The position numbers and the translations under genes are program-made. From positions 1 to 64,000 of IMG/VR virus record IMGVR_UViG_3300037400_003374: a DNA stretch of 64,000 nucleotides; one strand, 5' to 3'. This stretch comes from a virus (Duplodnaviria > Caudoviricetes). Position 1 is the stretch's first letter. Each line of letters opens with the position of its first letter. The notes below the pieces were generated by a model that made no database searches, had not been told where the DNA came from, and worked only from the letters and a program-made list of their open reading frames with translations. Shown here piece after piece: positions 4,527 through 42,862 of this stretch.

Positions 4527-7500
4527 TTACCTCCTTATACTGTTTGCGGCACTAGTTTTTCGAGCAATTCGCATCATTTCATTTAATGCCTGCTCGCCTG
4601 CACGACGAGCATCGTAATCATTTGCAATTTGTTGTACGTTCATATTTACTGATGCATTTTCTATAACAATAGCTTCGGATGATGCTTGTGCAGGAATAGC
4701 AATACCATCTTTGTAAGCTGTATTATAAGTATTTAAGAGTGTAATGAGAGAATTAGGTTTATTGGAAAGAATATTATCACGAAGAACCTTAGTCTACTCA
4801 GCATTAAATATAGCTTCAGGTCTTTGCTTGGTACCATCCAACCATGCAGGACCGGTCTAATAATCCATTCCGCCCTCTTTATACACTTTAGTATATATTG
4901 CAGGGTTCATATTAAAAGCATTTCTTGGTACCTTAGCTAAAGCGTATTTATATGCTATGGCGCTAGCCGATGATTCTGACGTATCTATTCCATATCCGAC
5001 AGCTGTACCACCAGCTCCGCTCCCAGTATGATACTTAATTGTAGCTTTCATTTTTGTTTCAGTTTTTTTAGTATTATTACTTGATGAATTACTTGCTGGA
5101 GCAGGCGCTGGTGCGGGCGCAGGAGCAGGTGCTGGCTACGCTGCGGCAGCCGCTGCAGCCGCTGCTTGACGCTATGCCTCTTCCGCTTGTCTATCCTTCT
5201 AATACTATAGACGAGCTGCGGTGCTAGCTTTGGTTAAGTCACCAGATTCATCATAAACCTAATCAAATATCTATTTATATTTTCCGCTACTATCATATCC
5301 TTGGCCGTACTCTCTTGTCATTGCATCGTTATAAATATTAAAATCATTTGTTTTTTCTTGTTTACGAGTAGCGTTTGCCAGTATTGCAACATCAGAATGA
5401 ACGTCACTTAAATCTTGACGATACTAAGTCCACTATTCTGCCTAGAATAAAGTGTCATTCATACCAGTAGCCGTTCCTAATGGAGACTTTGCCCAGAATT
5501 CTGAATTGCCCTGCATAATAAAATTAGTTATTACTGCCGCGGACTCATTCATTACTTCGTAAACATTATTCCATAAGAGGCCAAATTCCTTCTGGTAATC
5601 TAAAGTTTCAGTCATAAGCTGAATCTGGGTATCCATACGTTCAATCTATAAGTCAGATGCTTCTTGAATTGCATTAATTTGTTGTTGCTGCAAATCAAAG
5701 TATTGAGAACGTTCGTTGCTATCAATTTCAGACTAAAGATTAGCAATATCTGCGGCGCTACCGCCAGAACGTTGTAAAATAGCTAATCTGCGCCTCTACT
5801 GATTCAATGTATTCTCTTGCTCTTGATTATCGTACATTTCCTGTTCTTTATTAAGAGCTTCAGTCAAGCCTTCAATATACTTACCAGTAGATTCCTCTAG
5901 CTTATCACGTTCATCCTGCAATGCATCAATCTCGCGCTGGCGCATGTCCTCTATAGCCTTCATAACGTTTTCTTCAACTTCAAGCTAATTATCAACCATT
6001 TCCTGCAATAGCTCATTTTGTGTGGTTTGTAATTCTAATAAACTATTCTGGCCTTCCTGAATTGTATCCCAGAGGCTTTGTGTTTCCTACGCGAAATTAT
6101 CCATTCTATCGCGCCAAGCTTCAGTAGCTGCCTGATAATAGGATTCACGCTCTTCATCGGTCACATCTCCGCTATGATCAGCATCTAATAAGATTTGTTC
6201 TCCATTACTATTATATTGCATGTATTCATCAAAGCCATACTGCTTTAATATATCATACTTCTATTTATTAGTATAATTGGCTTTTCCGTTTTCGTCAAAT
6301 CCCATTAGATTGGTTAAGAAATTCATTGCGCCTTGCTGTCCATTCATTTCAACATCATTACGGAAATGTAACTAGCCATTTTCATCAAAAGTATAAAGCT
6401 TTCCGAGTGGTTCGTCCTTAAGTGCAGTAATACGTCTCTAGTAATAATCTTCCCTAGAAAGATTTAATTGCTCTTGCGCATCAATCTACTATTTTAATGC
6501 TGATATTGATTGTTTCTAGCTCTAATAATAATGTTTACCATTTTTACTAAAATCAGACTGAAGTTTAGACCTTAGCTGTTCTTCGTGTGTAATCTGCTTT
6601 TCTAACTTAGCAATTTCCTAAGTTAAATTATACCAACGTTCAACGGTCTTAACCCAGGCTTTGGGGTCAACAATCTTATTGCCGCCACCGCCGCCTCCGC
6701 CTCCGCCACCTTTAGCAAGGTCGGAAACAGACGCGCCTTTTAAGGCTTCCCACATTGCGCGTAATTCTTTTAATGCATTTAAGGCTGCTTGTGCACTAGC
6801 CATTGCAGGGCCGCCATTAACATTACCAGTAGCAAAAGATACTGCATTGCGCTCATTAGTAACAGCACGACCGCGCTCGCTAGACATTCCTTTCGTTAGT
6901 AAGGACTAAGTTTGTAAGTGATTGAATACAATAGCGTCATCGGCCAAATCTACCATTTCTGGGCCATTTTGACCCACTACAAAATAACGACCATTAGAAA
7001 CTACCAATTCTGGGCCAAGTTCACCCATTAAGGTTCCTTTTGCTATAGCATAATTATTGCGATTTGAAGTAGAACCCTTTGAAGTAAGATTACCTGTAGC
7101 CCCGCCGCCACCTCTTACAGTAGCCTAAACCTAAACTTTATATGGACCACCATGAACTAGTCTATCTAAAGCGTTTTTAATATTATTGATAACAGAAGTT
7201 GCACTACTAGAAGCGGTAATTGCAATTGATGCCTTCATAGCATCAACTTGTTTAGTTGCTTCTTCACCAGCATCTACTACTTTTTCTGCATCGCCTTCAA
7301 TTTCTACTGTAGGTGATTTCTTAGTAACTGCTTCTTTTGCATCTTCTACATCTTTTACCATACCTGAAGTGTCTGCGCTAGTAACAACAGTAATTTCAGT
7401 TGTACCAGTTTCTATTTCCACACCTTCATCAGGCGTATTGTTACCGGCATTTAGAGAACTAAGACCCTAAGCTAAGTCTGCATAAGGAATTGTTTTTAAT

Positions 7501-10500
7501 GTTTCTAATGCTGCAGCTATTCGCTCAAGAGCAGCAGCAAGCCCTTCTACATTGGTGCTAGGAATACTACCTAATTGAGTAACCATAGAAATCCAATCAG
7601 AATAAGCTTCTTGCTTGTCAGTTATGGTTGTATTCAGATCTATTATATTATTCGCAAATTCCTAAAAGCTTTGTGTATCAGAAAATGGTATATCTTGACC
7701 AAGGTTAGATAAAATATCTAAATTGCTCAGATCTACTTTAGAAAGTGTTCTTCCTTCTACCGTTAAAGCTTGTAAAGTTTTTAGATATTCTTTAACCGAT
7801 TTTCCCTATTCAGTTAAGAAAACTTTGTGTTGAGAATCGGTATCGCTTAACGCTTTTTCTAAAAGATTCTCGTGTCCTTGACTGCTCTTTAATATACCCG
7901 AAATATCTATGGCCTATTGCTCAACTTCGGAAATTGGATTTTCCACCACTGGAGTAACAGAAAAAGCATTATGAGCATTTGTCCATTCTTTCCATTTATC
8001 GTCTAATAAGTTTGTTAGTAACTCAATTTGAGTCTTTGGAACATCCTGTGCATTCAAATAATCTTGTATTGTTTTATGATCGCCCTCAATGAGCAACTAA
8101 GCAGGTATATCTACTGTTTTGGTAGTAATAGTTTCTCCGTCAGCATTAACTTCCTTCAATTGTAACTAATAAGAATCTGCTGAAATATTAGCAGTAGAAG
8201 CAGTAGCATTAACAGTATCTCCAGCGCTTATTCCGCTAACATCTGTAACCTTTTTTGTGCCAGTAACTTTAGCAATTATTAAATTCCCCGTTGTTGCATC
8301 TACGCTAGAAATTTCTACACTAACGGGATCAGAGTAGGACGGTTTCGCGCCTTCCTGTAATCCTACTTCTAAATTACTTAATTCACCTGTACCAGAGCCA
8401 ACTGGTATTTTATATGAGCTTAAGAAAGCAGCAATATTCTAAGCATCAGGATCGTTGCCTACATAGTTAAGTATTAAATTCGCAATCTGGCCCATAACCT
8501 ATTCAGTACTAGGAACTTCAACTACTGTGCCATCTGCAAGAGTAATAGTGCCAGTTGTACCTTTTACATTGTTGCCATTTAATGTAAGTTCACCAGTCAA
8601 TAGTGCATTAACGGCATCAGCTATCGTTACTTGATTTTTACCAATAGTAATTGTTCCAGCGGCAATATCGGTCTTGTTATTAGCATTTAATAATAAATTC
8701 GCTAATAATATCCCTACAGCTTTAGAATAGGTAGCGCCATTTTCTAATTGCATTGATGATACATCTGGTTTACCTGAAAAAGTTGCTTCTACTTCTTTAA
8801 CTGCGGCTTTTAAATGATCGTAGTCAATTGTTGATGGTAGGTCAATTCCGGAAGTATCAGGCTCACCATTAAATTTAAGTGTAAGAGCGTGAAGCTAAGC
8901 AAATACATCGTCAGCGTCAGGAATATCAACTTGAGTTCCATCCGCAAGTGTAATTGTACCAGTCCTACCTTCTACTTTATCACCGTTTAATATAAGGCCG
9001 CCGGTTAAAAGAGCATTTATAAAATCGGTTATTTTTATTTTATTTTCACCAATTACAATTTCGCCCTCTTCAACATTAGTATCATCATCAGAGTTTAATA
9101 ATACATTAGTAAGAATTAATCCTAAAGCTTTAGAATATTCTGCATCTTCTAAATTAATATTTTCAGTTGATGGACGATCATCATAAGATGCTTCTACTTC
9201 ATCAATTGCAACTCCCAAAGTATCATATTCAATGCCTTGTAAATAAACTTGAGATTTATCTGGCTTATCATCATATTTTGCTTTTATTTCACCAATTGTT
9301 GCATCTAATGTTTTATAAGAAATAGTCTATAAATTGATACCTTCTTTATTTGGCTCCTTGTTATATATTGCTTTAACTGTTGTAATGGCAGCATCCAGCA
9401 TATCATAATCAATTGGATTCAATGTTATTTCTGATGAGGGATCAACATCACCACTATATTCTGCATTAACCTTTTTTACATCAGCGTCTAACCGCTCGTA
9501 TGGCATAGGATTTAGTGCGCCAGTGTGATCTGGTGTAATATTACTAACATCAACCTCTACAGAAGTTGCACTGCCCTATACGTTTTCTAAAGGCTCAGTA
9601 ATACGAACTTCTTCGTTAGTAGTCAATTTTACGGTTGCGCCAGAAGCTAGGGTTAAATTTAATTCTTGTACAGTTCCTTCTCCAGAGAGCCCTTCAGTAG
9701 CTTCTTCTAAAGCCTCAGGAACACTACTAGCATCACCTGTTATTGTCTATGTTATAGGCGTCTGCTAACCAGCTTCTGCGTTTTCGTCTAGAGTTTCAGG
9801 TACGGTGTTTTCGCCAGCCTGAACTGTCTACTTCACCGTGTAGCCAATTTTTTCCTTCTACTAATGAATATCGGATAATAAATGCATCGTATCGGCATCA
9901 GGCTTGCTTGTGAAAAAGTTCTCTGGTTTATAATTTACTTTCCCAGTTTCAACATCAACTTCCATATCTACAACTGCAGAAGCTTTATATTTCATTGTAT
10001 AAGTTAGCGTATTATTTTCATCTTCTGCATTTGTTGCAGTATCTGTCCATTCTTTTCCAGAAAGCATAGAAGCAGTCTTAATAGCTGCCGCGATACCTTC
10101 TTTTGTAGTGGAAGTTACAGTGTAGTCTTCAACATGAGCTGTATATGTTACTTGGTCTTCTGTTATATCTACTTCAACTGTAGCGTCTATAGCTCCATGA
10201 TATGTGACCGCTCCAGTATCTAGGTTTATATCTTTTTTATCTCCAAGTAAGCCATCTAGCGTAATAGCAGCTTGTGCTTTTAAGGCCGTATCTTCATCTT
10301 CAAATTTTTTACCGTCAACTATAAATTTACCTTCAGAGTCGCGCTCTAGTACATAGCCATGTTTAAGAGTAAGATGCCAATCGCCAACATCAATTTCACC
10401 CTCATATCCAGTACCGCTTAGCACTTCTTTCATCGAAGCTGCGATTTCTTCCTCGTTATAATCTCCAGAAAGCATTGCTTTATATAAAGCTGCTAAGCTG

Positions 10501-13500
10501 GCATGATATAATTTAGCTTCTTTTTCAGTTAGCTTAGCTCCTTCTTTAGCATCTGTAAGCATTTTTCGTAGTGATATGCCATTAATATTTACATTATCTA
10601 AAGCTTTATATAAATCTGAATCCTCACCGAGATCATTAGCCATAGATAGGATCTCTTCTGCTGCTGTTTGCATGCCGGCTTTCCATATTACATATCCTTC
10701 ACTATCTACAATGAAATCCCCTTTATCATTAATTTCAAACATTTCGCCTAGATCAATACCATTGCCTTCTACATCAATATCTTTCAATTTTTCCATAGCT
10801 ACAATGACTTCTAGCAACTGAATCATACTATCAAGGATTTCAATCTAAGTATCTGCGATTGCGTCAATGCCTTTATCAACTTTACTCTTCATAGAATTAG
10901 CTCCAGAAGCTAGGCTAATTCCAAATTTACTTAAATCAACTTTAATGCTTCCATCAGCAGTAACTTTTAATGAGGCCGCACCTTTCTATATAGCCGCCGC
11001 GGCGGATTCCATACTACCATCTAATGAAATACCGGCCAACTCAATCGTCTATCCAGATACGCCTGCAATATGATTCATTTCATTAACAATATTGTACCAA
11101 TCTTGATAAGCAATTGAACCTTTTTTAACACCAGTCTGTAATGCTTTCCAAGCCTTACCCCAATTCTCAAAATAATTAAGAGGATTGTTCTAACCACTAG
11201 GAATAGCATTTTCCATAAACTTAAAAGATGAATCTTCCGTGGTTGCACGTTCTGCCTAAATTTCACGTAACAGATTTAATTCTTCTTGATACTATTTAAT
11301 TTTAGTATCATCATAGGTTTCGCCTTTTTTGATTGCTTCGTATACTGCACTGATTTCATGCAATATTTCTGCACGATCGCTCAAGCTATTAGCAAGAGCA
11401 TCCTAATCTTTTCCGGCTGCATCTGCTAACTCAATAATTAATCCTAAATCTTTAGCATCTGCTTTTAGGATTGCATCTAAACTGCCATCTGTGCCGTCTA
11501 TTAATTTTTGAATATATTTTGTGAGAGCACCATCATCTAATTTTTGACCATCTTTCGTGATAGGTGTAATATTCATTACCCAAGGTATATTAGTTTTATA
11601 ATTACGAGAATCTTCTGTTGCTGTAATTAATGTAGAATAACTTCCATCTTCATTATTCAAAATGGGACGGTTGTATAAATCTACATTTCCATTCATAGAT
11701 TCAAAGAAGTTTTTATATTGACCATAACCAGCAGCGTCGGTCGCTTTTGTAGCTAACTCTTTCTATAATTCCGTGGTTCTTGCCGCTGATGCAGTTACTG
11801 ATTTAAAATTCTCATTCGTTTCAATGAGTGATTCTTTTAAATCTTTAAATATTATCTAGCCCTAAATGCTATCAATATTTTTCATAGTATTATATAGCTA
11901 CAACGCTGAATCATTAGCTAACTTTAAACCATCAGTTGTCTCAGTAAAATCTAATTTTCCAAGCCCATGCTATGTTGCCCATTCCTATAATTTAAAAGCA
12001 TCTGTATTCTTTAAACTTCCAGAAATACCACCAGTGATTAAAGAAGTAATTTGAGATAGCGTATCTGCAATCGCGTCAGCTAATTCAGCAAGCTATTCTG
12101 GTATAACCGCACCAGCTTTCGCAGCAACATTGGCTACTTCAGTAATTATCTATGTAATATCTGCACCGAATTTTGCCATTTTATTCGCATCAAAAGCTAC
12201 AACGCCATCTTGAATTATTTGACCATATTTGCTTATTATAGCGTTAAAGGCCGGACCAAGTGTTTTCTATAAATAAGAAACATTAATAGCTTTACCAGGC
12301 TTAGCATCTGCCAACCCTTTAATCTAATTAGCAACATTTTCAATAATATTATTACTGCTATTATAGAATTCAACCATAGAATCGGCATACTTATTAAATG
12401 CTTCCTAATATTCTGGTGTACCTTTAAGTATTCCAAGGTCTCCCGCAAAAGTGTCAAAGTCAAAAATACGAATGCCGCCGAGGCCTGTTAAGCCAACAGT
12501 ACCTTCCTTAACAAGCTTAGGCAGTTCCTCTTCTAAATTACGGCCAAGTTTATTAAATAACTACGCTAATGTATCAAACGACATGTTCGCAGCATTCTCT
12601 AATGCATTCATTATATTCGTATTTTTCTAATCACGGGCCGTTAACATTTTAGCATAAGCATTGTTTAGATCGGTAGTAGTCCTAGCGGCATCTTCTTTCA
12701 TCCTATTATAAATAGCAGCATAAGCCTTAACCATATCAAATGCCGAATTTACCACGCCTGCTTGGTCAGCCATACCTAAAGAAACTAAAGCTTGTTTTAA
12801 TTGCCCAGTAACAGTTTGCATTGGAGTAACATCACTAAGCGCATTAAAGGCATCATTCCAACTTTTAAATGCATGTGAATAAATTTCTGTTAACTAATCT
12901 TCGGACAAATCCGGTTTTATTTCTTTTGCCAGTTTAAAGGCTCTTCCGCCACCTTCTAAAAGTACTGTTATAGCATTTTGTGCGGATTGCTATGCCTTAG
13001 CTACCGATTGCCCCATTAACTCATAATAAGCTTGAAGCTACCGTCCAAATTTATCAACATCTTTTTCTGTTTTTTCGCCTGATAAGAATCCATTAATGTC
13101 AAGATTTTTACTCGTCAAGTCGATAGTATTAGCTTTAATCCACTATTCTACTTCAGTTTCTTGAAGTACACCATAAGCTTGTAAATTTTCAGCCTATAAT
13201 CGTACATACTCGTTAATAATATCTGGTGAAATAGTAAAAGCTTCTAATGCTTCATCATAATATGAAATCTATTTTGTTGTAAGATTTTTACCACTAAGCT
13301 AATTATAAGAATCTACAAATGTTCCAATTTCTGCAAAATTATTAGTTCCAGTAGACAATAAAGATACGCCTTTAGAAATATTCTATAGATAAGAATCGGC
13401 AATTTCACTAATTTCTTTCTAAAATAATTCATTAACATCATAGCCTATTGCGGCTAATCTCTAATTAAGAGCGGCTAAATTAACTTTATTTCTACCCCAC

Positions 13501-16500
13501 TCATCAGGAGTAATATAATCACGAATATTAATCCCTAGGCTCTCAAATGCTGTTGAGAAAGTAGCAATAGACTCTTCACTAAGATTTTCGTAATTTTCAA
13601 CTACACCTTGAATGGCATTATACTTTTTATTATTAATAGAAGTTTTTAGATTATTTACTCTAGCCAATAGCTACTAATATTCTTCTGAATGCTTATCAAT
13701 GTTTGGTAAAGCATTTACAAATAATAAAATACTATCAATATCTTTTTGGCTATTTACAACAAATTCTTCCGTCCATTCGTTATATTCAATGCCTAAGCCT
13801 CGTAAGTCTTGAATAATATTATCTGGATTAGCCCCCCAAGCGGCAGCAAAGCTTTCTGCATCAGCTAAACTAAATCTTTCTGAAATTATCTTGGAAATAC
13901 CGGTATATTGATTGCGTTTTGAAGCAGTAGATTTTTTTATCTAATTATAAACACTCTATAAAACATCCTTTCCTTCGCCTTCATATGCCTTAATAGATTC
14001 TTCTAACAATAATAATAAAGCATCTCTTCTAGCTTCATTTTCAATTACCATTGTAGCGTCAGTAGCTTTAGCTCCTAGTGCTGTTTTCATAGAATCAGGC
14101 AGAGAATCAATTCTAACTTCCGTGCCGATACTTGCCTCAGAGAGAGCCTTTAACTATTGAGCAATCTATTTTCCTTTATTTTTTTGCTCTCTATCACTAA
14201 TTCCCTTATCAATATCATCAGAGACAATTTTTCTAAATTGCTCAGTTTCATCTAATGCAGTTAATCCTAGCTTTTCAGCCAAGAATTTTAATGCTGCTTG
14301 TGCACTGACGCCGGCTTTTAATGCCCATACTTCTCCATTAAATTTAAAATAGTCATCTAAGCCTGTTACTTCGCCATTCGCATTTACGAATGCTTTGTTA
14401 CCTGTAGCATCTACAAAACTATTTAGTTCTTCCGCAGTAAAACCATTCTCAAATTTATTTAATAAATCACGCTATTTTCCAGCATCAGTTGTTTTATAGC
14501 TTTCTTCCGCTCGTTTTTGTATGTCTTCAGCAACTTCATCTAACGTTCCCGCTCCAGCTTTAATTAAAGTAAGAATCGCCTTCCATACACCATCTGCTGC
14601 GCCAGCTATATCAGCAGTTGAGGCTCCTTCTTGAAGATTGAATGATTCAGTTAATAGAAGCTATTCCTATTCTGTTAATGCTTCCCAAACTAAATCGCCT
14701 GAAGTAATTTTATCATAAAGACTAGTTAAACTTTCAAAACGAGCGCGTTCGCCTTTAGATTTAGAAACCTAGTATTCTTCTCCAAGGCCCCAATACTTTA
14801 GCTAAGCATTATATTCATCTATTTTTCCTTGAATTAATAAAGGATATACTGTATCAAAATATTGATCAATCTATTCCGCAGGAGATAATTTTTCACCCGC
14901 CTTTCTTTCACTTCTAGCAACTTTCTATAAATATGCCTTTAATTGTTCTTTCTATTGTGATGTTCCTTTCCCAGCAACAATAGAAGTATAATCAAACGAC
15001 TACAAAGCCATTTTAATCATATCTTCTGACATGCTTTCAAGTGCATCTATTTGTTCTTGTAATTCTGTAGTATGCGTTTTTAAATACTCGGTTATAAATT
15101 CATTCCAAGACTTCCAAGTTTCTTCATCCTAGGCATTAAAAGCATCAACCAGCTACGTATATTCAAGCCAATAACGATCAAGCTATGCTTTATCTTTGGA
15201 ATCATTTGGATTTAAATTGAATGTTTTAGCAAATTGATTCTTTAATTCAGCCTATGCATTCTCTATCTCTTTCGGCGTACCTAATTCTTTATTTCCATTA
15301 TAACTAATTGCCATATCCTCCAATTGGTTAGAGGAATCTAATAAAGCAGGCCCTAAAATGAGTGAATAATCTTCAATAGACTTGTTAATATTACTTATTT
15401 GATCTTTATTTTGCTATTCTAATGCCGCCATCTCAAGCTAAAAAGCCTAAGAAGTCTTAATATATCCTTTAGCTTCTTTATCATATGTATATAAATCTTT
15501 AAATTGTAATTTTTTATCTCTATTAGCATCAATTAATGCTCTAGCTTTCTTTAACGCTTCATGATATTTAAAGACCTTCGTCATATCGTCAATAGAATTG
15601 CCGATAGAAGTAGCTGTTTCTTCTGCTTCAGTAGTAAGCTATTCTAGCTAAGTTGCAGCGCTAATAGCCCAATGAGAAGCCGATTCAGTAAGAATATTAG
15701 AAACTCCTTCAAATTCTGTACCCATCTCACTAAGCTAAGTTGCTGCAGATTGTAAAGCTACTGGATCAGATAAGTCCAAATCCTTTAAAACAGAAAAAAC
15801 TTTAAGCTATTTATCCCACGATAGTCTTCCAATTCCTTCCTAACCATATAACTATTCTAATACATGGCGATAAACGTCCGCTTGTGCATACTACTAATTA
15901 TCTATTAGTGACTAATACTAAGCCATATCTGAACGGAAAGTAGGAATCAACGCGCCAATTAATTCATTCTAGTCACCGGCACCATTATACAAGGCTTTAA
16001 ATGTATCATTATCTAAACCTGCGGCCTTGAGCTGCTTATCTAGTCCTTCAATTTCTGCATCTCTTATTTCCTATAAGTGTTTTTCTAAACTTATACCATA
16101 TGTTGTAAAAAATTTACCTGTCTTCTCTTCTCCTAAATAAGAAGCTATATCATCAACACTCCGGAACTAAGAATAATCTAAATTTAAAAGTTTATTTGCA
16201 CGATCTTCATTCTTTAATAACCAGTCCTCAAATTCTTTCATAATCTCTTCATCTGGTAAACTAGTTCCCATTCCAGAATAAATAAAGGACATTAAAGAAA
16301 GATATTTCTATAATTTCTCAGCATTCTCTTTTGATTGCTCGTCCTATTCCGCTAAATCATGTAAGCGAACTTCTATTCCTTCAGAAATTTGCGCATGCTG
16401 CAAAGCAGTATTTGCAGCCGTAATTGCAGTCTCGGTTTGATCATATAAACTCTCGGCATAAATTTTGACTTTCTTAGCTAAATCTACTAAATCTAAAAAT

Positions 16501-19500
16501 GATTTGCCCAGAAGGTCTTTTTCAGAAGAAATTCCAACAGCACTTAAAATATTATCATTAGGCATATTGGTATTATATGTACTAATTGCGTTCCATAACA
16601 TACTTGCTATTTCATCTTTCCACTGCTCATCTATTAAATTAGATTTACCAGATTCAAGGTACCCTTTCTCATCAATCCATTTTAATATTTTATTTTCATT
16701 ATCTTGATAATATTCTTCTACAGCTCCCTCTCTTAAAAGTGGACCTAGCTCATCTAATTCTTCTATTCCCTTGTGATCTTCTAGAAACTTCATATACTCT
16801 CGTACTAAAATTTCCTTATATGGCATAGTATTGTCATACTATTTCTAATAGTCATTTGTAGTAGTAAAAAGGCGAATCTAAGCTGCTGCAGCCTAAGCTA
16901 CCATATCATTAATTGCTTCAGAAGTAATACTGTCTTTAAACAAACGACGAGCGTCTCTATATGAATCTAACTCTTTCGTCTCTGATTCCAATGCTGCAAC
17001 TGTGCTTCGAGCTGTTTTTAAACGAACTTCCGCGAGTGCTTCCTCTAATGTAGTCGTTTCTATAATAGCATTATTTGCCGCATCAATAGTACTCACATAT
17101 TCAGGATAAGAGCTCTTTAGCTAATTCATATAATCGACATATTCTTGTTCAGCTTCTACAGAATCATAACGTGCATCTTTTAGCTATTGTAATTTAGTTA
17201 GAGACTATTCTAATGATTTTTGCTCTGCCTGATCCTTCGCCAACTTCTCCTAAGACTACTTGAGAGCTTTTTCTCTTAATTCAATTTCTCTCGCTAGATT
17301 TCCATGATACTACTGAAAGGCTGTAATAAGTGACGGCAGCGCTGTAGCAATTCCAGAAATTAATCCTGATAGTGCACCTACCCCGGTGCCTAAACCTGGT
17401 ACAACGCTACCTAAAGCGGCTCCAGAAGCCATACTGCCCAATATCTAAAGTTCGGCACCGAATTTAGTCTTTCTTGCCGCACTACGATCCTAATCAATTG
17501 ACGTGCTTTTTCCATAATCATTCGCTCCACCTATAACTAAGCCTGCACCAGCCAATGACATGAGCTATCCTACCATTTGACCTACTCGCGACATAAGCAT
17601 TTTAAAACCGCCGTTCTAAGTGAAATTATTCCAAAAGCCCGTTCCAGCTTCTTGTCCTTTATTCCTGATGGCTAAAGCCAGTCTGTCAATCATACTTAAA
17701 GTATACTGTTCCGCACTTGCTCCAGCCGTCTGCAATGAAGTCTAAATATTAATAATAATATTCTATAACGCTGCTTTTATAATAGAGATTAAACTAGCCG
17801 CAACTGCAATTGCCTAAGCAGGAATTTTTCCAAACAATTTAGGCATACTATTTGCAGCACTAATAACATTGGTAATAGTATCAAGTATTCCACGATATAA
17901 AGTCTCTATTCCAGAACTAGTATAAAATTCTTGGATTGTCACTTTCATTTTTTCAATCTTAGCATCAATTGAATCTAGTGTTTTTAATGTCTATATTTCA
18001 CCTGTTCCTTCAGAGTTCAGCGCAGTCTAAAGTGCTTTTTTGTATTCATCAACATTACTAACCAACGCTAAGAAACGAGATTGCTATCTATTACCAGCCA
18101 TCAAAGTAGCAATATAACGCTAAGATAATGAATCCAATGAATCCCATTTTTCCATTAATTCAAGTATTACATCATCAAAATTACGGAACTAGCCCGTAGT
18201 ATCGTGAATGGTAATGCCAACAGTTTGCAAAGCTTTATCAACTCTATTAAGGCTCATTTCTTCGCCTTCAGAGTCAACTGTTTTACTAGGATCACTTGTC
18301 ATTTCACCATAACGAGAAATAACAGATTTTAAAGCAGTACCAATATTGGTAGCGGATTCACGAGTAGTAGCAATCATAGTTGACATCATTGCACTAGTTG
18401 CTTCGAAACTCGCGCCTACAGCTTGAGCCGATGCAGCGGTCTTACTAATAGCAACAGCAATTTCTTCAGTACTGGAAGCTGTTGTTGCTGCTAATGCGCT
18501 AAATACGTCTGTAACATGAGCAGCATCTGTCATTTCAAGTTTAAAACCACGAATAGCAGTCGTCATATAGTCTGCAGCAGTAGCATAATCCAAACCAGCG
18601 ATACGAGCCATTTTTAAAGTTTCAGTAGTCAATTCCATTACATCACTTTGCTATAGGCCCTATTGATAATAAATCTATGATACTTCGTAAACACCCTTAA
18701 TAGCAACACCATACTGACGAGCAATTTCACTATATTGACTAATCTATCTCCATAAATCTTCTTGAGAAAACTAAGTAACGACGGAAATGGAGGTCATAAC
18801 AGTATCTAGTTCTTGAATATGCTTTTTCATATCATTAATTGCTTTCTTTGTCATATTCAATACTTGCCAGAAGCCCATCCAACGATTAACCGCCATTGAT
18901 ACATTACTAAGAGCATTCTATTTTTGCTGCAATTTGTTTAACGACTAAATATAGCTTTCAATTCTATTTTTCGCTTCATCTACTTCAGGCTTTGGAATAG
19001 GTGTTTTACTAGCTGCGACATCATTATATGCTTTTGCTAATTTTTCTATAACTGCTAATAGCGCCTAAACTGCATCTTCTGTCGTTCTTAATGTATTAGG
19101 AGACGAGCCTTCAACTTTTAAAAAAGTAGAAATTGCATTCGTTAAATTCTGCCATGCTACTGTAGCATTGGGGAGGTCAGTGCTAATCATACTAGCTTTT
19201 GCAGTTTCCTATGCAGAAGCATAGCTTGTTAACGCAGTCTCTAAATTTTTATATATATCTGTCAATTTCTATCCAGCAGTAATATCATCAACGCTAAATC
19301 CAGCTGTTTTCAATTGAACAGTGTCAATATTCATAGACTTAAGTGCACTGCTAATTTTATTCTAAAGATCTTTAACTCCAGTTTTGGAAACAACTTGTTC
19401 GCCAAGCCCGGTAAAGACATTTGTTAATTCAGTAGAAATATTAGCTCTCAATCTAGAAAATTTTATTTTTTCACCACCAAGTTTACTTAGTGCATCAGTT

Positions 19501-20543
19501 AACTTGGAATTTAATCTTTCAACACGAGCATCTATATCAGTTTCACTAATCCCATCAAAAAGAGTTTTGGGATCAATTTCTGCTGCAGCTAACGCTTTTT
19601 TAATTGCATCAGTACCCATTAAACTTTTAAAATCCGCATCTGTGTATTTTGTCCCTGAAGGGCCTATACTTGTTAATGCTTTCTAAACTTCTGCCTCTTT
19701 ACCTGTAATAAGGTTAATCTATGTTTGATATTCCTCTTCAATCTTCTCCGTCTTTGTTCTAATATATTCACTAATATCAGTTGTATCAGTTACTACAAAA
19801 CTCTTCGTTTTATCCGAAATCCCTTCTAATGTTGTAGACAACACTGCCAATTTCGCATTTGCGTCGGCTAATTCTTTAGGATCAACTATATTTGTAGTAA
19901 TTCCCTTTGTATTCGCACCAACAGCGGCCTAAACATTTGCTAGACCAGAACCACGAATTGTAGCAATAGAAGTATCTAGCTATGCAATATTCTACTTAAT
20001 ATCATTAACTTGCTATTTAGCTTCTCTTGCTGCTTCTATTAATCTATCTTTCAACTCACTAAAAGTAAGCTTAGAAACATCACCTTTTAATGAAGAAATC
20101 TAGTCTCTTAAATTCTGTATACCATTAATAGATGATTGATCTACAAAAGCAACAGCAGAACCATTTTTCATTTGCTCCAAACTTGCTTGTAATCTATTAA
20201 TCTGTTCAATTGCTTTATCAACAGTATCTTGGTCTGATACTGAGAATTTGATATCTTCAAATCCAACATTCCCCATCTTAGTCTTTACGGTAGCCAATGT
20301 ATCCAACATTGTCTAATATTCACGTAAAAAACTCTAAGAGCTAGAAGACGTCTAAAAAGCGCCTTTTAATTTACTACTCAATTTATCAACCGAGTCTGTA
20401 GCCTTTGATAGCATTCGGTCCATGCCTTTGAAACTATCAGAATCCAATTTTACGCTATTCTATAATAAGGTACGTAATTCTTGAATCTATTGTCTAGCGG
20501 CATCCAAACCTAGTCGTACTGGAAATTCAATACTCTAACTCAT
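4527..20543 (-). CDS. Giant tape measure protein, ~5338 aa, TAG=Gln
   Basis: AAGGAGAG RBS, ATG at 20543, third codon is TAG. Sixteen minus-strand track ORFs from 4857 to 20309 share one frame and each ends in TAG. TP901-type TMP core at 18189-18638 (LKMARIAGLDYATAADYMTTAIRGF...). TAA at 4527. Intervening stretches were spot-checked, not exhaustively checked. Confidence 0.88.
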
Positions 20544-32810: not shown

Positions 32811-33756
32811 CCTACTCCCCTCCCATTAGCTCTTTCTCTAAACTGTCTTCGCCTTCATACTCGATGTCGGCGGTTTCATCAAACTCAACCTTTTCATTTT
32901 CAATTTCTTCAAGGCGCTCAGTCATATTGTAGCGTGCCTTGCGGTCTTCTACCTACTCGGCAAAGTTGCCTTCATTGCGGACTAGCCGCTACAAATAATT
33001 TTGAATATTCTCCATCATAAAGTCAATGGAATCTTGCGGCTCAGTATGATAATTTGGGTGCCACCCTTTCTTTCCATAGTATACCATGAGTTCACCAACT
33101 GACTCAAAGTCTGCTGCGGACTTGGCATTGGAGGCCTCGAAGTGGTAGGTCTTTACGATGTCGTCGGCCTACTTCATCATCTTAGAAACATCAACGTTTT
33201 CGCGCAGCCCCTACTTAATATGCCATTGAAGCTCACAAAAGTCACGGGCCTTTTCCTAAAGAATAGGAGTGGAAACGTTTTGCGTTGCCACGATTTTGTT
33301 GTAGAAGTCCTCAAGCCAAAGAAGTTCATCGGCCTTATAGGTTGGGCCCCATACCTTCTTGAGGCGTTTCATTTTGGCCTCTGAGATTGCCTTAATCTCA
33401 TCATCAATGGTACCCTCTTTTCGCGCCAATTCCCACCGCGCATTCTCATCTTGCCATGTTAATGTCGAATAGTGGTCATCATACAGGAGATTGAAGTACG
33501 CGGTAAAGGTATGGTCCTTGTATTGCGCATAAAGTTGGGTCCATTTGTTAAGGTCCAGCGGCAAGTCCAACCAGCGCATTACACGATCAACTTCACCAAG
33601 ATTGTCTTGTGGAGTAGTTGCCTCAAGGCAAGAGGTACAGAGATAGGACCTATGGCCGGGAAAGAAGCGCGATGGCGTATATTGAAATTGTTCTATGGGT
33701 TTTTCTTGCTTACATCTATAGCATCGTTTCGTCTTTTTTTCTTCCGTCATATTCAT
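32803..33756 (-). CDS. Zn-finger protein (CYRC...CTSC), candidate terminase small subunit, ~317 aa, TAG=Gln
   Basis: Track ORF 33256-33765 extends through six TAG to TGA at 32803, overlapping the terL start. Function inferred from position only. Confidence 0.6.
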
Positions 33757-35017
33757 TCTACTCACCTCTTCTTATGCGGCGTTCGCGCTCACAATCGCGG
33801 CAGCAGGATTGGAAGCCATCCTTGCGCCCGGAGTTCTTGGTATAGAATAAGGGGTGCCGCGGCAAGGCCCGTTTGCATTGTTTGCATACTTTAAGTTCCG
33901 ATGGCGGCGTTTCGCAAAGAATGCGATGCTTTTTCGCGCAACGTGCAATTTCTTTTGGGATGTCGTTGGCAATAAGGGTACTTAAATAGTAGGCATTGTA
34001 GGTGAAGCCAAATTCCTCCTGCAGTTCTTGGCATATTTGCTCGCGCGGCATTGCCTCCATTACCTTATGGACAATGGCGCGGCGCACGGGCGTTAAAGGT
34101 GTCATATCCACATAGCGCTCTAGGTCCCAGAGAAGGGTGCGCCCATACGTATTCAGCTTTTCCTTTAATTGTTCATAAAGGGCACTATAATTATTCATTA
34201 AGGCGTACACATGTTTGTAGTTTTCCCAGTCAAAGTCGTGGCGGCAAACTATCCATTTTACTTCTAGGTTGGGCGCTTCGCCGCGTGTTTCATAGTCCTC
34301 TAGGCGCTAGGAAACAGTATGCGTATAGGAGTGAGAAACGCGGTATTCCCATTCTTCATAGGGTATCCAGTAGGCGCAGGCGCCGTCCCATTCGTAGAAT
34401 TGGGGCTTGGGGCGGTCTAGTGCCAAAAAGTGCAACTAGGGCTTGTACACGTCCTTCAAATAGTATTGGGTCCTCTTCATATCCACGAGGTTATGCTTGA
34501 GACGGTATAATCGGTAGTCGTCCTCAAACATAAGAAAGCCCTCTTCTGGAGGGAGCTTGCCCGATAGCATATGAACCCACTTGTCTAGGTGGTCAAGGCG
34601 TTCCCAAAGTTCTACCATGCCGGGGATGTCGGCATCTCCGATATCAATTAGTTCGCCAGTTTTTTTGTCGTACTTGGGACGCTAGATAGTGGGGACCGAT
34701 TTCTTATAAATGTCGCGCTTGTATGCACTGCGGAATTCTTGCTCGTCGGTAGCGGGATTTTCAAGTATTTCATCCAAAGAGAGAACATAATCGTCGGAGG
34801 TTTTGAATGTATTATAGCGTTTTGAATTATTATAAATTTCTCCACGCTTTAGAGAGGATAGGCCGTTTTCATCCTTGCCGTATAGTATGTAGGTGGCCAT
34901 TTGTTCTAAATCTTGCGGCGAAGGGTCCTTGTTTAGGGTATCTAGAATACCCTTGACTAATTCAAGGCGGTCGGTGTCTCTTTCTATAGTGTAATCTAAT
35001 GAATATGGTTTTTTCAT
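33710..35017 (-). CDS. Hypothetical protein, ~435 aa, C-terminal Zn finger (CKQC...CCRDC), TAG=Gln
   Basis: Track ORFs 34682-35017, 34436-34618 and 33758-34210 join in frame through five TAG; AAGGAGGTG RBS. Confidence 0.68.
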
Positions 35018-35043: not shown

Positions 35044-35073
35044 ATTGTATCATATTTGGTGATGGGCTGTCAA
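35044..35073 (-). promoter_or_regulatory. sigmaA-type promoter for the leftward operon
   Basis: TTGACA-N18-TACAAT with TG extension, upstream of the RBS of the gene starting at 35017. Confidence 0.65.
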
Positions 35074-35431
35074 GTGTTTGGGTTCAAAAATAAAAAAGTT
35101 GGTGGAATTTGGCTTCATTTTTGAAAAAGTTGGTGGAATTTGGGGACGGCCCCTTCGGGTCAAGCGTGTCAAGCTCAAATTTTCCTGAAAGCTAGGCCCC
35201 GGACCGCTGGGAGCGCTGGACGCTGGGGCGCTGGGGCGCTGAGGTCCGTATCCGTAACCCTCCGCGCAGCTTTGCGCGACCACAATTTGAAAAAGAAAGC
35301 AAGTCTAATTTCATTTTGGTAAACCCTCCGACCCCGCTGCCCGCTGTTTTCAAATATGGTAAATTTTTTACGTAGGGCGCTGTTTGCGCTTCGCGACATC
35401 ATTGGTTATTATATTCCAACGGGGCTTACGA

Positions 35432-36110
35432 GTTAGTTATGACTAACTAACTATTATAACAAGGGAAACGGGACGGCCCGGTTAGTTATGACTAACTAAC
35501 TAATAGTACTAAGGACAAGTAGACCTCCGGTTAGTTACGACTAACTAACTAAGCGTACAAAACTAGTTAGTTATGACTAACTAACTTATGTCGGGCACTG
35601 CGGGACCGGTCCCGTTGTCGCGAGTACGACACTAGTTAGTTACGACTAACTAACTACTCGAACGGCGCTGTGGCAAAGCAAGAGTTAGTTATAACTAACT
35701 AACTATTATAGCGGAGGCGCAGACCTCCGGTTAGTTATGACTAACTAACTAGTACGTTACTAGTTAGTTATGACTAACTAACTATAGGTAGGGCTCCGCG
35801 GGACCGCACCAGTTAGTTATGACTAACTAACTATTTATAAGTGAAGTGTACGTCACTAGTTAGTTATGACTAACTAACCATTTTGTAATTAAAGCGCACG
35901 ACACGAGTTAGTTATGACTAACTAACTATTATAAGGATAAAAGAGTAGCGTACAGGTTAGTTATGACTAACTAACTATTATGAGAGCAGTGACGGAACGG
36001 ACCAATTAGTTATGACTAACTAACTATCAGGTGGCGCGCAGGTTAGTTATGACTAAGTCACCATTTTATGGTTTAACGTTAAACCGCAGTTAGTTATGAC
36101 TAAGTCACTA
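35432..36110 (+). repeat. Repeat-spacer array: 15 copies of ~22-bp GTTAGTTATGACTAACTAACTA with unique 11-47 bp spacers
   Basis: Copies start at 35432, 35481, 35530, 35566, 35635, 35684, 35730, 35763, 35812, 35859, 35907, 35956, 36005, 36042 and 36089. Most spacers are 24-27 bp. Confidence 0.9.
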
Positions 36111-36161
36111 TTATGCAAATATAAAAGCATAGGCTTTTCGCCTATGCTCTCTTTGTCGTTC

Positions 36162-36347
36162 TTACTCTCCGCATGCCATGTATCTGAATGCTTTTCCTTC
36201 CCATACTTCGATGCTTTCTTCATCGGTGAACTTGTCTCCGCCCTCTTCGGTGTAAAGCTTTTCAGCCGTTGCAATTGCACTCTCTAATGTGGTTGCGGTT
36301 GCGATGGTCTCTACTCCGGTCCAGTCTCTCATGATGATTGTAAACAT
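36162..36347 (-). CDS. Small hypothetical protein, family A (MFxI...EESIEVW...ACGE), copy 1
   Basis: Own promoter and RBS; paralogous to 36926-37111 and 39675-39860. Confidence 0.75.
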   Translation of the reverse strand: MFTIIMRDWTGVETIATATTLESAIATAEKLYTEEGGDKFTDEESIEVWEGKAFRYMACGE

Positions 36348-37246: not shown

Positions 37247-37460
37247 GTTAGTTATGACTAACTAACTATTATGTCATTATAATGGTAGTGCACGGGTTAG
37301 TTATGACTATATCACTATTATTAAAGTATCACTGTAGCGCACAAGTTAGTTATGACTATATCACTATTATAGTTTAACGTTAAACCACAAGTTAGTTATA
37401 ACTATATCACTATTCTAGTTTAACGTTACACTATAGCGGTTAGTTATGACTATATCACTA
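37247..37460 (+). repeat. Variant repeat-spacer array, 5 copies (four are GTTAGTTAT(G/A)ACTATATCACTA), period 46-49 bp
   Basis: Copies at 37247, 37296, 37345, 37391 and 37439; spacers carry the palindrome GTTTAACGTTAAAC or a variant. Confidence 0.85.
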
Positions 37461-37558
37461 ATGCGGTTTAACGTTAAACTTGTCTATGCCGTTCCGGAGA
37501 GACAGAGATAAAAGTATAACTATTATACAGGACAAAAGAAAAGGCATAGCCTTTTGGG

Positions 37559-38008
37559 CTATGCTCTTGCAAGTTTCTGCAGGAATTTCTCATTTGTTAT
37601 CTCGCAGTTATCAAACTTGATTTGTACGTTTTCTCCGTTTATCTGTATGTCTCCAGTGACGTTAAACGGTTCACTATTCTTTTTCCATGTCCCTTGTGTA
37701 AACCGTTCAACTATGATTCGTTCAAAGTTATCACCTTTGTTATAAGTGCTATCTGCTTTCAAGTCTTGTTCGTGTCCGCACATTGTAGCCAGCTTTAACA
37801 GTTCTGCTTTCTGAGCTTTGTTCAACTTAATGCGAACCTTTGCAAATCCTCCGCGCTTGCTTGATGCATGGTCAAGACTTGTATACTGCTTTAATTCTTC
37901 AAAGGTGAGCGTTACGTAATACAGAATACCTTTTACTGCAAACCCAAGTATGTAAAGATGGGAAGCACTAAGGAGATTGTAAAGAGTCAGCATAGTTTCA
38001 AGTGTCAT
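37559..38008 (-). CDS. Hypothetical protein, family C (LDHASSKRGG), ends at TAG
   Basis: Paralog of 42419-42862; its TAG lies inside the terminator hairpin GCATAGCC-CAAAA-GGCTATGC. Confidence 0.78.
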   Translation of the reverse strand: MTLETMLTLYNLLSASHLYILGFAVKGILYYVTLTFEELKQYTSLDHASSKRGGFAKVRIKLNKAQKAELLKLATMCGHEQDLKADSTYNKGDNFERIIVERFTQGTWKKNSEPFNVTGDIQINGENVQIKFDNCEITNEKFLQKLARA

Positions 38009-41467: not shown

Positions 41468-42282
41468 GTTAGTTATGACTAACTAACTAAAATTAGACAC
41501 GACTAACTTTAGTTAGATAAAACTAACTAGAGTTAGTTATGACTAACTCAATAATAGTTAGTTGTAACTAACTGCCTCATCCACCGGTCCCGATCCGGTC
41601 CGTAAAGTCAAAGAAAGTCAAAGTCAAAGAAAGTCAAAATCAGGCGCGAGTTAGTTATGTCTAACTATAGTTAGTCATGCCTAACTCAGGTGCCTTATCC
41701 GAACCGATCCGAAAAGTCAAAGAAAGTCAAAGTCAAAGACGAGTTAGTTATGACTAACTCAATATTAGTTAGTTATAGCTAATTATAGTTAGTTGCAACT
41801 AACTAGAGTTAGTTATGACTAAGTCACTATTAGTTAGTTGGCACTAACTAGAGTTAGTTATGACTAACTAACGTTAGTTGTACCTAACTACAGTTAGTTG
41901 TGACTAACTATAGTTAGTCATGTCTAACACGAGTTAGTTATGACTAAGTCACTATTGGTTAGGTATAACTAACTAGAGTTAGCCGTGACTAACTGTAGTT
42001 AGTGGTGTCTAACTAAAGTTAGACAAGCCTAACTTTAGTTAGCTGAGACTAACAGAAGTTAGCTGGGACTAACGCTAGTTAGTCAAGACTAACTAAAGTT
42101 AGCTGCGTCTAACTGAAGTTAGATATAACTAACTAAAGTTAGCTGGGACTAACTGGAGTTAGCTGAGACTAACTCCGGTTAGCTGTAACTAACTAAAGTG
42201 AGCTGAATCTAACTGTAGTTAGTTGTAACTAACTTTAGTCAGCTGAACCTAACTCCGCCGGCGCTGGTTAGTTATGCCTAAC
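41468..42282. repeat. Dense array of ~33 palindromic GTTAG-N6-CTAAC sites, including 15 units in exact 20-bp phase (41958-42253)
   Basis: Unit GTTAG-N6-CTAAC-N4; the N6 and N4 sequences vary while arms and spacing are fixed. Confidence 0.93.
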
Positions 42283-42305: not shown

Positions 42306-42350
42306 TGTGGATAACTCTGTGGATAATTTTGTGGATAAAATTGTGGATAA
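42306..42350. promoter_or_regulatory. Four tandem perfect DnaA boxes (TGTGGATAA) at 12-bp period
   Basis: TGTGGATAA at 42306, 42318, 42330 and 42342, the reverse complement of consensus TTATCCACA. Confidence 0.88.
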
Positions 42351-42418: not shown

Positions 42419-42862
42419 ATGACCAAGGAAATGATGCAGGAACTTTACAACAAGGTATCGGGGGCTCACAAGTATGCTCTGGGCTTTATCTTCCAGCACA
42501 AGCTGTATGCCGTCAAGCTGAGCTTTGAGGGAATCAGTAAGTATTTCAAGCTGGACCATGCAAGCTCTAAGAGGGGCGGATATGCAAAAATCCGTATTCG
42601 CCTGACCGCCGCGGACCGTGCTAAGCTGAGTGAAGTGGCGGAGCTGCTGGGAGCTGAAGAGCTGCTGACCAAGGACACCAAGTACAACAAGGGTGAGAAC
42701 TTCGAACGGGAGCTGACAGAACGCTGGACCGGAGAAACCTGGGTAAAGGATAGTGTCCCCTTCTGGGTATGCGGTGATATCCGGGTAGACGGTGAAGAGA
42801 TTCAGATCAAGCTGGACGGTGCGGAGCTGACCAACGAGAAGGTACTGGCAGGGCTGGCCTGA
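42419..42862 (+). CDS. Hypothetical protein, family C, copy 2
   Basis: Paralog of 37559-38008; TGA stop. Confidence 0.8.
   Translation: MTKEMMQELYNKVSGAHKYALGFIFQHKLYAVKLSFEGISKYFKLDHASSKRGGYAKIRIRLTAADRAKLSEVAELLGAEELLTKDTKYNKGENFERELTERWTGETWVKDSVPFWVCGDIRVDGEEIQIKLDGAELTNEKVLAGLA

Follow-up and report, generated by a model that had tools for sequence, protein, structure and literature searches.

The sopC centromere of F consists of tandem direct repeats of ~43 bp, each with a 16-bp inverted repeat binding one dimer; its period is strict and its cognate proteins, SopB and SopA, are encoded adjacent to it. In the Fur titration assay (FURTA), a repressor is titrated by a multicopy operator. 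The tox gene is phage-borne, and the 19-bp DtxR box reads TTAGGTTAGCCTAACCTAA. Control by a host DtxR-type repressor is described for DtxR, IdeR and MntR operators, including that of tox in corynephage beta (PMC13001254). Similarly, host Spo0A boxes are reported to couple the development of the virulent Bacillus phages phi29 and Nf to the state of their host (PMC2731898). Synthetic decoy arrays made of multicopy operator DNA sequester a repressor or an activator and shift the expression of its regulon (PMC3322331; PMC7826281), and mycobacteriophage stoperators are described as many copies of a short site spread across intergenic regions (PMC9283540). The presence of host regulator sites on phages (Spo0A boxes and the DtxR-tox pair) and the titration of regulators by operators as a laboratory principle are known already; among the papers searched, we found no description of natural phage-borne operator arrays acting as decoys or occurring at such a density as here.

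The locus reported here, array A, is a series of tandem units built on the dyad GTTAG-N6-CTAAC. It resembles DtxR-family operators in its palindrome of TTAG/CTAA words, in the metal-loaded winged helix-turn-helix (wHTH) dimer predicted here to bind it and in the occurrence of its site before metal-uptake genes, and tox already exemplifies the control of a phage gene by a host repressor of the DtxR type. The half-site spacing nevertheless differs from that of the DtxR box, and 15 tandem copies in array A, with 57 copies in 22 kb placed off the core promoters, contrast with the single tox operator over a single promoter. Like phi29 and Nf, the phage has a lytic genome with predicted sites for a host global regulator, but phi29 harbors a handful of repressing sites at promoters and origins, whereas dense arrays lie here off the core promoters and exceed the host regulon. 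FURTA and decoy arrays are laboratory constructs, whereas array A is natural and phage-borne. Compared to sopC, its period varies from 33 to 69 bp and neither a ParB nor a ParA was found in the sequences searched (see below). Stoperators, as the dyads of array A, represent one short site multiplied between phage genes, but they are asymmetric, serve as sites for an immunity repressor encoded by the phage itself and halt elongation, while the dyad matches a predicted host operator exactly and no repressor was found on the phage side. CRISPR arrays share with array A dyad-symmetric direct repeats and unique spacers; length regularity, spacer origin, repeat family and expression signals, on the contrary, all set the two apart.

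The window, i.e., the whole stretch of DNA analyzed, comprises bases 1-64000 of a 73,663-bp IMG/VR virus record. The completeness of this record is 41% according to CheckV, leaving ~60% of the genome outside it, and relatives with complete genomes reach 177-188 kb; the phage is thus large, with a genome size estimated at ~180 kb. Under the standard code, the window harbors only 25 ORFs of at least 150 aa, and reading TAG as a sense codon yields 58.7 kb of long frames. The leftward arm (1-35017, minus strand) is TAG-recoded and encodes a portal, a terminase-like protein and an ORF of 5338 aa. This giant ORF (4527-20543, minus strand) contains 156 in-frame TAGs, the late arm requiring TAG to be sense; no tRNA genes were found in the window. 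The operon behind the promoter next to array A (Table 1) includes the sigma-like, terminase-like and portal genes. Small leftward genes occupy 36.1-41.3 kb, each with a consensus sigma-A-type promoter, and gene direction is rightward from 42.3 kb on. A Bacillota host is suggested by ribosome sites of the AGGAGG type and by the TTGACA/TATAAT promoters. Two copies of AAATTCCACCAACTTTTT are present just upstream of the -35 of the sigma-like gene (35085-35150, minus strand), a motif also encountered in the related locus L034, and a GC-rich CGCTGGGG repeat of 4.6 copies lies close to the same promoter (35205-35241). The duplicated AAATTCCACCAACTTTTT motif may be an activator or repressor site of the early-to-late switch.

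Table 1. Position of array A, of the neighboring genes and signals, and of the two other dyad arrays in the window.
Feature	Position	Strand	Description
Sigma-like gene, first gene of the leftward operon	33710..35017	-	435 aa, weak 'sigma factor' PHROG match; TAG-recoded; synteny anchor
Near-consensus sigma-A-type promoter	35044..35073	-	TTGACA-18-TACAAT with TG; drives the sigma-like gene and the packaging operon; conserved in L034
Array A	35431..36116	+	15 direct units, core rGTTAGTTAyGACTAACTAACTA and variable spacers
Example unit of array A	35432..35451		perfect GTTAG-TTATGA-CTAAC and 1-mismatch dyad at +4 (GTTAT-GACTAA-CTAAC)
Terminator-like hairpin	36126..36148		ends the last leftward early gene; immediately right of array A
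Last small leftward early gene	36162..36347	-	61 aa, no family match
Array B	37247..37479	+	one intact unit, then four variant units (GTTAGTTATGACTATATCACTATTAT); GTTTAACGTTAAAC palindromes in spacers
Array C	41468..42282		27 perfect dyads and degenerate ones, mostly at 20-bp pitch, variable N6

A previous reading of the sequence alone (the sequence-only reading) had described 15 repeat copies of ~22 bp located between the early region and the promoter of the terminase operon, and both the count and the location were borne out, the early side consisting of small leftward genes. The core, of 22-23 bp, is near-invariant in 13 of the 15 units (anchors at 35433, 35482, 35531, 35567, 35636, 35685, 35731, 35764, 35813, 35860, 35908, 35957, 36006, 36043, and 36090), and the edge of the array lies ~360 bp from the -35 of the promoter of the sigma-like gene. 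Agreement by column reaches 13-15 out of 15 units at core positions 2-23 and falls to 5-12 past position 24, TTAT being often found directly 3' of the core. The GTTAG-N6-CTAAC dyad recognized by the same reading is perfect in 12 units and has one mismatch in unit 13 (ATTAG), so that units 1-13 are intact or carry a single mismatch, and the right half-site of units 14 and 15 is broken (CTAAG, GACTAAGTCAC). In every intact unit, a second dyad with one mismatch overlaps the first at +4, which explains the conservation of the CTAACTAAC tail. The period of ~49 bp claimed earlier stands as the mode but not as a rule, since successive periods of 49, 49, 36, 69, 49, 46, 33, 49, 47, 48, 49, 49, 37, and 47 bp span 33-69 bp. 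Similarly, spacers announced as mostly 24-27 bp are for 10 out of 14 of 23-26 nt but extend over 10-46 nt, and the pitch shows no helical phase.

The palindromes noticed in the spacers are real (GGGACCGGTCCC at 35602-35613, CGGAGG..CCTCCG at 35712-35729, and GTTTAACGTTAAAC at 36071-36084), and the latter, shared with array B, is the only source of spacer 12-mers recurring elsewhere in the record. Spacers resemble each other slightly more than expected, with a mean local score of 9.41 compared to 8.29 ± 0.19 in shuffles and a best pair scoring 23 compared to 15.3 ± 1.9. Such a faint interrelation points to an origin by duplication, and the pattern fits diverged duplicates rather than captured foreign DNA. 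A near-invariant core among spacers decayed almost to randomness indicates selection on the core.

Array A is part of a larger population of sites. The window contains 57 exact matches to GTTAG-N6-CTAAC for 0.07 expected, all within 35.4-57.7 kb: 12 in array A, 27 in array C, one in array B, and 17 as single sites. The earlier claim that array A and a 20-bp-pitch array (array C) share the same dyad was correct. Relative to the -35, single dyads lie upstream at distances of 11-82 bp (mostly 31-82 bp) for rightward early promoters and of 68-170 bp for leftward ones; in the window, they are never placed over core promoters. CtsR-like boxes are interspersed in array C, after which come four DnaA boxes (42306-42350), and this arrangement of sites for host proteins beside array C was counted in favor of a docking of host proteins on the phage genome. 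The AGTCAAAGAAAGTCAAA repeats inside array C (41604-41642 and 41713-41738) conform to the CtsR box consensus, and the DnaA boxes flanking the array are of the form TGTGGATAA, the same combination being present in L224 and L243.

Variant units are found at 36041-36116, 37296-37479, 41808, and 41933. They retain the left half-site and TTATGACTA, their right half-site is swapped for GACTATATCAC or GACTAAGTCAC, and they often adjoin a GTTTAACGTTAAAC palindrome; a similar sequence, GTTTAACGATTAACC, occurs in array spacers of the relative G004 (L029). The conservation of units with a broken right half (units 14 and 15 as well as arrays B and C) hints at a second binder, for which the variant units may be the putative site. 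A paralogous family of ~147-aa proteins is also encoded beside the dyad arrays (42419-42862, plus strand, and 37559-38008, minus strand), as well as beside arrays in L237, L224, L243, L238, L232, L246, and L222. Its invariant residues are S49, G53, N90, G92, E96, W108, D120, G125, Q129, and K131, and its E..GD..QxK pattern may be that of a putative nuclease.

The core is identical with chromosomal sites of bacteria. The exact 18-mer AGTTAGTTATGACTAACT was found in 116 stretches of a species-genome collection, for a calculated expectation of ~17 at equal base use and at most ~50 for AT-rich genomes. These records belong mostly to Erysipelotrichaceae, Anaeroplasma, Lachnospiraceae, Oscillospiraceae, Acutalibacteraceae, and other gut or rumen Bacillota, and are also scattered over other phyla. 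Long ORFs are largely avoided, with 109 of the 116 sites outside them, and the genes within 1.2 kb encode FeoB (28 loci), ZIP (13), a DtxR-family repressor (10), DUF3793 (9), and NrdI (4). Clustering and Pfam scan of the flanking ORFs recovered FeoB, ZIP, NrdI, DUF3793, ABC exporters, AhpC, and a 129-aa DtxR-family protein, and a census of 140 neighbor ORFs was headed by ZIP, FeoA (9 ORFs), FeoB, DUF3793, and two DtxR-family domains, the DtxR family being the only recurrent metal regulator. In L096, the DtxR-family gene is 71 bp from the 18-mer and encodes a 129-aa protein with Fe_dep_repress and Fe_dep_repr_C domains, which matches the solved structures of MntR, IdeR, ScaR, and DtxR (PDB). 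The site combines TTAG/CTAA-type half-sites, in a dyad that suits a wHTH dimer, with an intergenic location before metal-homeostasis genes and next to the gene of the regulator itself, a layout of the autoregulation type. GTTAG half-sites are also encountered in a paper about MepR, a repressor of the MarR family, and no MarR family was present among the 25 commonest families beside the host sites. From these comparisons, we conclude that the core probably serves as operator for a short metalloregulator of the DtxR/MntR family in gut Bacillota, with binding by this regulator as a prediction. Because these bacteria have an identical predicted operator on their chromosomes, the likely binder of the core is a host protein. 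Conservation around host sites ends at the 18-mer, and the asymmetric tail of the phage units (CTAACTAACTA, then often TTAT) is not common to host operators. AGTTAG-N6-CTAACT is present in 2-5 copies in each of five site-bearing bacterial genomes, which may not be those of the phage's host, and in 36 copies in the phage record (57 by the looser pattern GTTAG-N6-CTAAC).

By contrast, a phage-encoded partner did not emerge, as neither a ParB nor a DtxR-type protein was detected in the record or in the complete relatives. Fe_dep_repress had no match in the phage record, and in the five complete relatives DtxR-type searches gave only sub-threshold matches, to wHTH proteins of 119-127 aa with Ala/Lys/Glu-rich tails that lack a metal-binding domain. 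These proteins were rejected as a phage-encoded DtxR, being absent from the record and unrelated to the weak wHTH ORF of the window. A Pfam scan of 60 early ORFs returned as DNA-binding matches a weak wHTH, one HTH_3, and one weak LacI-type HTH, and no ParA or CbiA. ParB_N was found neither in the record (41% complete) nor in four complete relatives, although control genomes matched. Because ~60% of the genome lies outside the record, the absence of a phage partner holds for the record and the complete relatives only. The 147-aa family was considered as a binder and set aside: its AlphaFold model is confident (pLDDT 94.5), but no function could be assigned, with no Pfam, PHROG, or PDB fold match, no Foldseek match at E ≤ 0.001, and a best Z of 3.6 in a wide search. 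Polymerases were considered too. The T7-like aspect of the ATGACTAAGTCACTATTAT tail suggested an array of promoters for a T7-like RNA polymerase, a candidate provisionally dropped as PF00940 was absent from the record and four complete relatives in a search run without a positive control. An array of sigma-A promoters was also discarded: 35432-36110 contains no promoter-like site, whereas perfect consensus promoters abound next door; ATAAT directly precedes the dyad on the minus strand of many units, with no -35.

Relatives of the phage were gathered with the sigma-like gene as a query, which retrieved 58 related loci; blastn of the array or its flanks against deposited phages gave no homology. 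Two metagenome contigs, L226 and L237, share 90-93% protein identity over their part of the sigma-like gene and present arrays of the same type, position, and orientation as array A, with 5-7 units at a pitch of 43-52 bp. Their spacers are different from those of array A, and the turnover of spacers among related phages, which the sequence-only reading had suggested to check, is thus real. At the locus of array A, L034-L036 (88-89% identity over the same gene) have only two dyads, behind which come about twelve DnaA boxes with a 12-bp period (L034:7660-7870, L035, and L036). In more distant relatives, the region upstream of the sigma-like gene contains arrays of different short motifs, of which several are palindromic and which may be sites for other regulators; these tandem motifs include ACTTTAATGTGCTAAAGT, ACCAAAT..ATTTGGT, and TTAACACCTAAA in L037, L040, L046, L053, L058, L061, and L082. 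Wide-pitch arrays with unique spacers were found in many related contigs, at a pitch of 19-73 bp. Recurrence of such array types among relatives makes the architecture a recurring feature of the clade, within which copy number, spacers, and even the identity of the motif turn over fast. The five complete relatives harbor 1, 1, 19, 34, and 4 dyads, respectively, and the genomes with only 1-4 dyads show that the sites are dispensable in the clade. The anaerobic ribonucleotide reductase NrdD is encoded by G001, G003, G004, and G005 (split or with an insertion in G004 and G005), and relatives also encode radical-SAM proteins, one of them directly beside nrdD as expected for an NrdD activase. Such iron-demanding enzymes suggest an iron demand in the clade, but some complete relatives with only 1-4 dyads still encode NrdD, and the presence of NrdD and radical-SAM proteins in dyad-poor relatives leaves the link to iron demand circumstantial.

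Taken with the anatomy of the repeat, the chromosomal identity of its core, the genes beside the host sites, and the turnover of the arrays, these searches lead us to lean toward array A being a docking or decoy array of high-affinity operator sites, on the DNA of a phage of gut or rumen Bacillota, for a metal-dependent host repressor of the DtxR/MntR family, which would be titrated by the phage and its regulon derepressed. The binding platform proposed by the sequence-only reading is retained insofar as a protein-binding array is predicted here as well, whereas the specific roles it attached to the platform (packaging or terminus signal, late-promoter silencer) found no support. In each intact unit, the repressor would find one perfect dyad and, shifted by 4 bp, a near-perfect one that overlaps it; the spacers would be filler left by duplications, and given the irregular spacing we propose that units bind repressor dimers independently. 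Arrays A, B, and C together with the single sites would provide roughly ten times more sites per phage genome than the host chromosome, and with such an excess replicating phage DNA could dock most of the metal-loaded repressor. The most likely outcome would be a derepression of the host genes for Fe2+, Zn2+, and Mn2+ uptake and of the nrdI-linked reductase genes, in a titration comparable to that exerted by the multicopy operator of the Fur titration assay. Several observations speak against this reading, namely that host operators lack the asymmetric tail of the phage units, that half-broken units are conserved, that some complete relatives encode NrdD with only 1-4 dyads, and that L034-L036, the closest relatives by the flanking gene, carry DnaA boxes in place of the array.

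The main rival accepts the host repressor and is compatible with the same binding event, but confers on it a local role between the early and late arms, as a metal-dependent roadblock or insulator or as a timer based on dilution by replication. We regard this as unlikely, although array A lies immediately behind the terminator that ends the last leftward early gene and ahead of the promoter of the sigma-like gene, its position and orientation are kept in two close relatives, and single dyads elsewhere come after terminators and before promoters. A terminator is indeed already there, and the downstream operon is served by a near-consensus promoter of its own, 360 bp off; moreover, 15 units seem too many for a roadblock, L034-L036 manage on two dyads and DnaA boxes, and copy number and spacers vary freely. 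The same variation, with unequal copy numbers between close relatives and faintly interrelated spacers, might rather suggest a functionless by-product in which a recombination-prone dyad at the boundaries of early-gene cassettes was expanded by slippage or unequal crossing-over. This is very improbable in view of the contrast between a near-invariant core and decayed spacers, which testifies to selection on the core, and of the same architecture recurring with different spacers in many related phages. Silencing of the late promoter, as the sequence-only reading envisaged, does not suit an array edge located ~360 bp from the -35. Its proposal of a packaging or terminus signal fares no better: in G004, a dyad-rich relative with terminal repeats, an array that may not be the syntenic counterpart of array A stands at ~109 kb of 181 kb, far from the ends.

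Packaging is one of several roles, with those of a sopC-like centromere or of iterons, that array A could have as a platform for a phage-encoded protein, its likeness to an operator being then a mimicry or a coincidence. Tandem repeats with an inverted repeat in each do resemble sopC of F, a symmetric host dimer leaves the asymmetric tail and the half-broken units unexplained, the 147-aa family accompanies arrays in several relatives, and the ~60% of the genome missing from the record could encode a partner. We nevertheless judge such a platform quite unlikely, since the 18-mer is identical to sites before metal-uptake genes in many bacterial families, neither a ParB nor a DtxR-type protein was found in four complete relatives, and the Pfam matches of early ORFs are few and weak. 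Besides, the spacing is irregular, unlike the regular period of sopC and parS, and sites dispersed over 22 kb of intergenic DNA do not fit one origin or centromere. An iteron origin in particular agrees neither with sites spread over 35.4-57.7 kb nor with DnaA boxes 6 kb from array A, and no rep gene was identified. Finally, a Cas-independent or host-Cas-hijacking mini-CRISPR array producing unit-length guide RNAs is hardly credible, and the sequence-only reading rightly ranked CRISPR low. Array A does share with CRISPR dyad-symmetric direct repeats and unique spacers that differ between related phages. Its near-invariant core of 22-23 bp is at or below the lower limit of CRISPR direct repeats (~23-50 bp). 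However, spacers of 10-46 nt depart from a near-constant length, spacers are related to each other above shuffles, and in bacteria single copies of the core precede feoAB, ZIP, and nrdI genes. A search of array A against Rfam returned no family, CRISPR repeats included, at E ≤ 1. The matches to phages expected from CRISPR-like spacers were likewise absent from 50,697 phage records at E ≤ 1, a threshold that, by calculation, is permissive enough to reveal a 25-nt spacer matching perfectly. The Pfam scan of the 60 early ORFs revealed no Cas domains, and promoter-like sites are present neither inside array A nor reading rightward into it.

A repeat-spacer layout in a phage genome is thus by itself no sign of CRISPR, as arrays of binding sites can look alike. 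The take-over of hosts by phages is usually credited to proteins and small RNAs. If the decoy reading of array A is true, operator DNA multiplied by the copies of the array and by replication would derepress a host regulon, a cheap and fast-evolving route of take-over that could be read straight from the sequence. More tentatively, non-coding DNA of large gut and rumen phages could act as a set of transcription-factor sponges for the metal repressor and, through neighboring arrays, for CtsR and DnaA; metal uptake and stress physiology of the host would thereby be rewired with no phage protein required, and the content of the arrays would change fast so as to track each host. The content of such arrays might then help to predict the host of a phage and the physiological lever on which it acts, here the supply of iron, zinc, and manganese.
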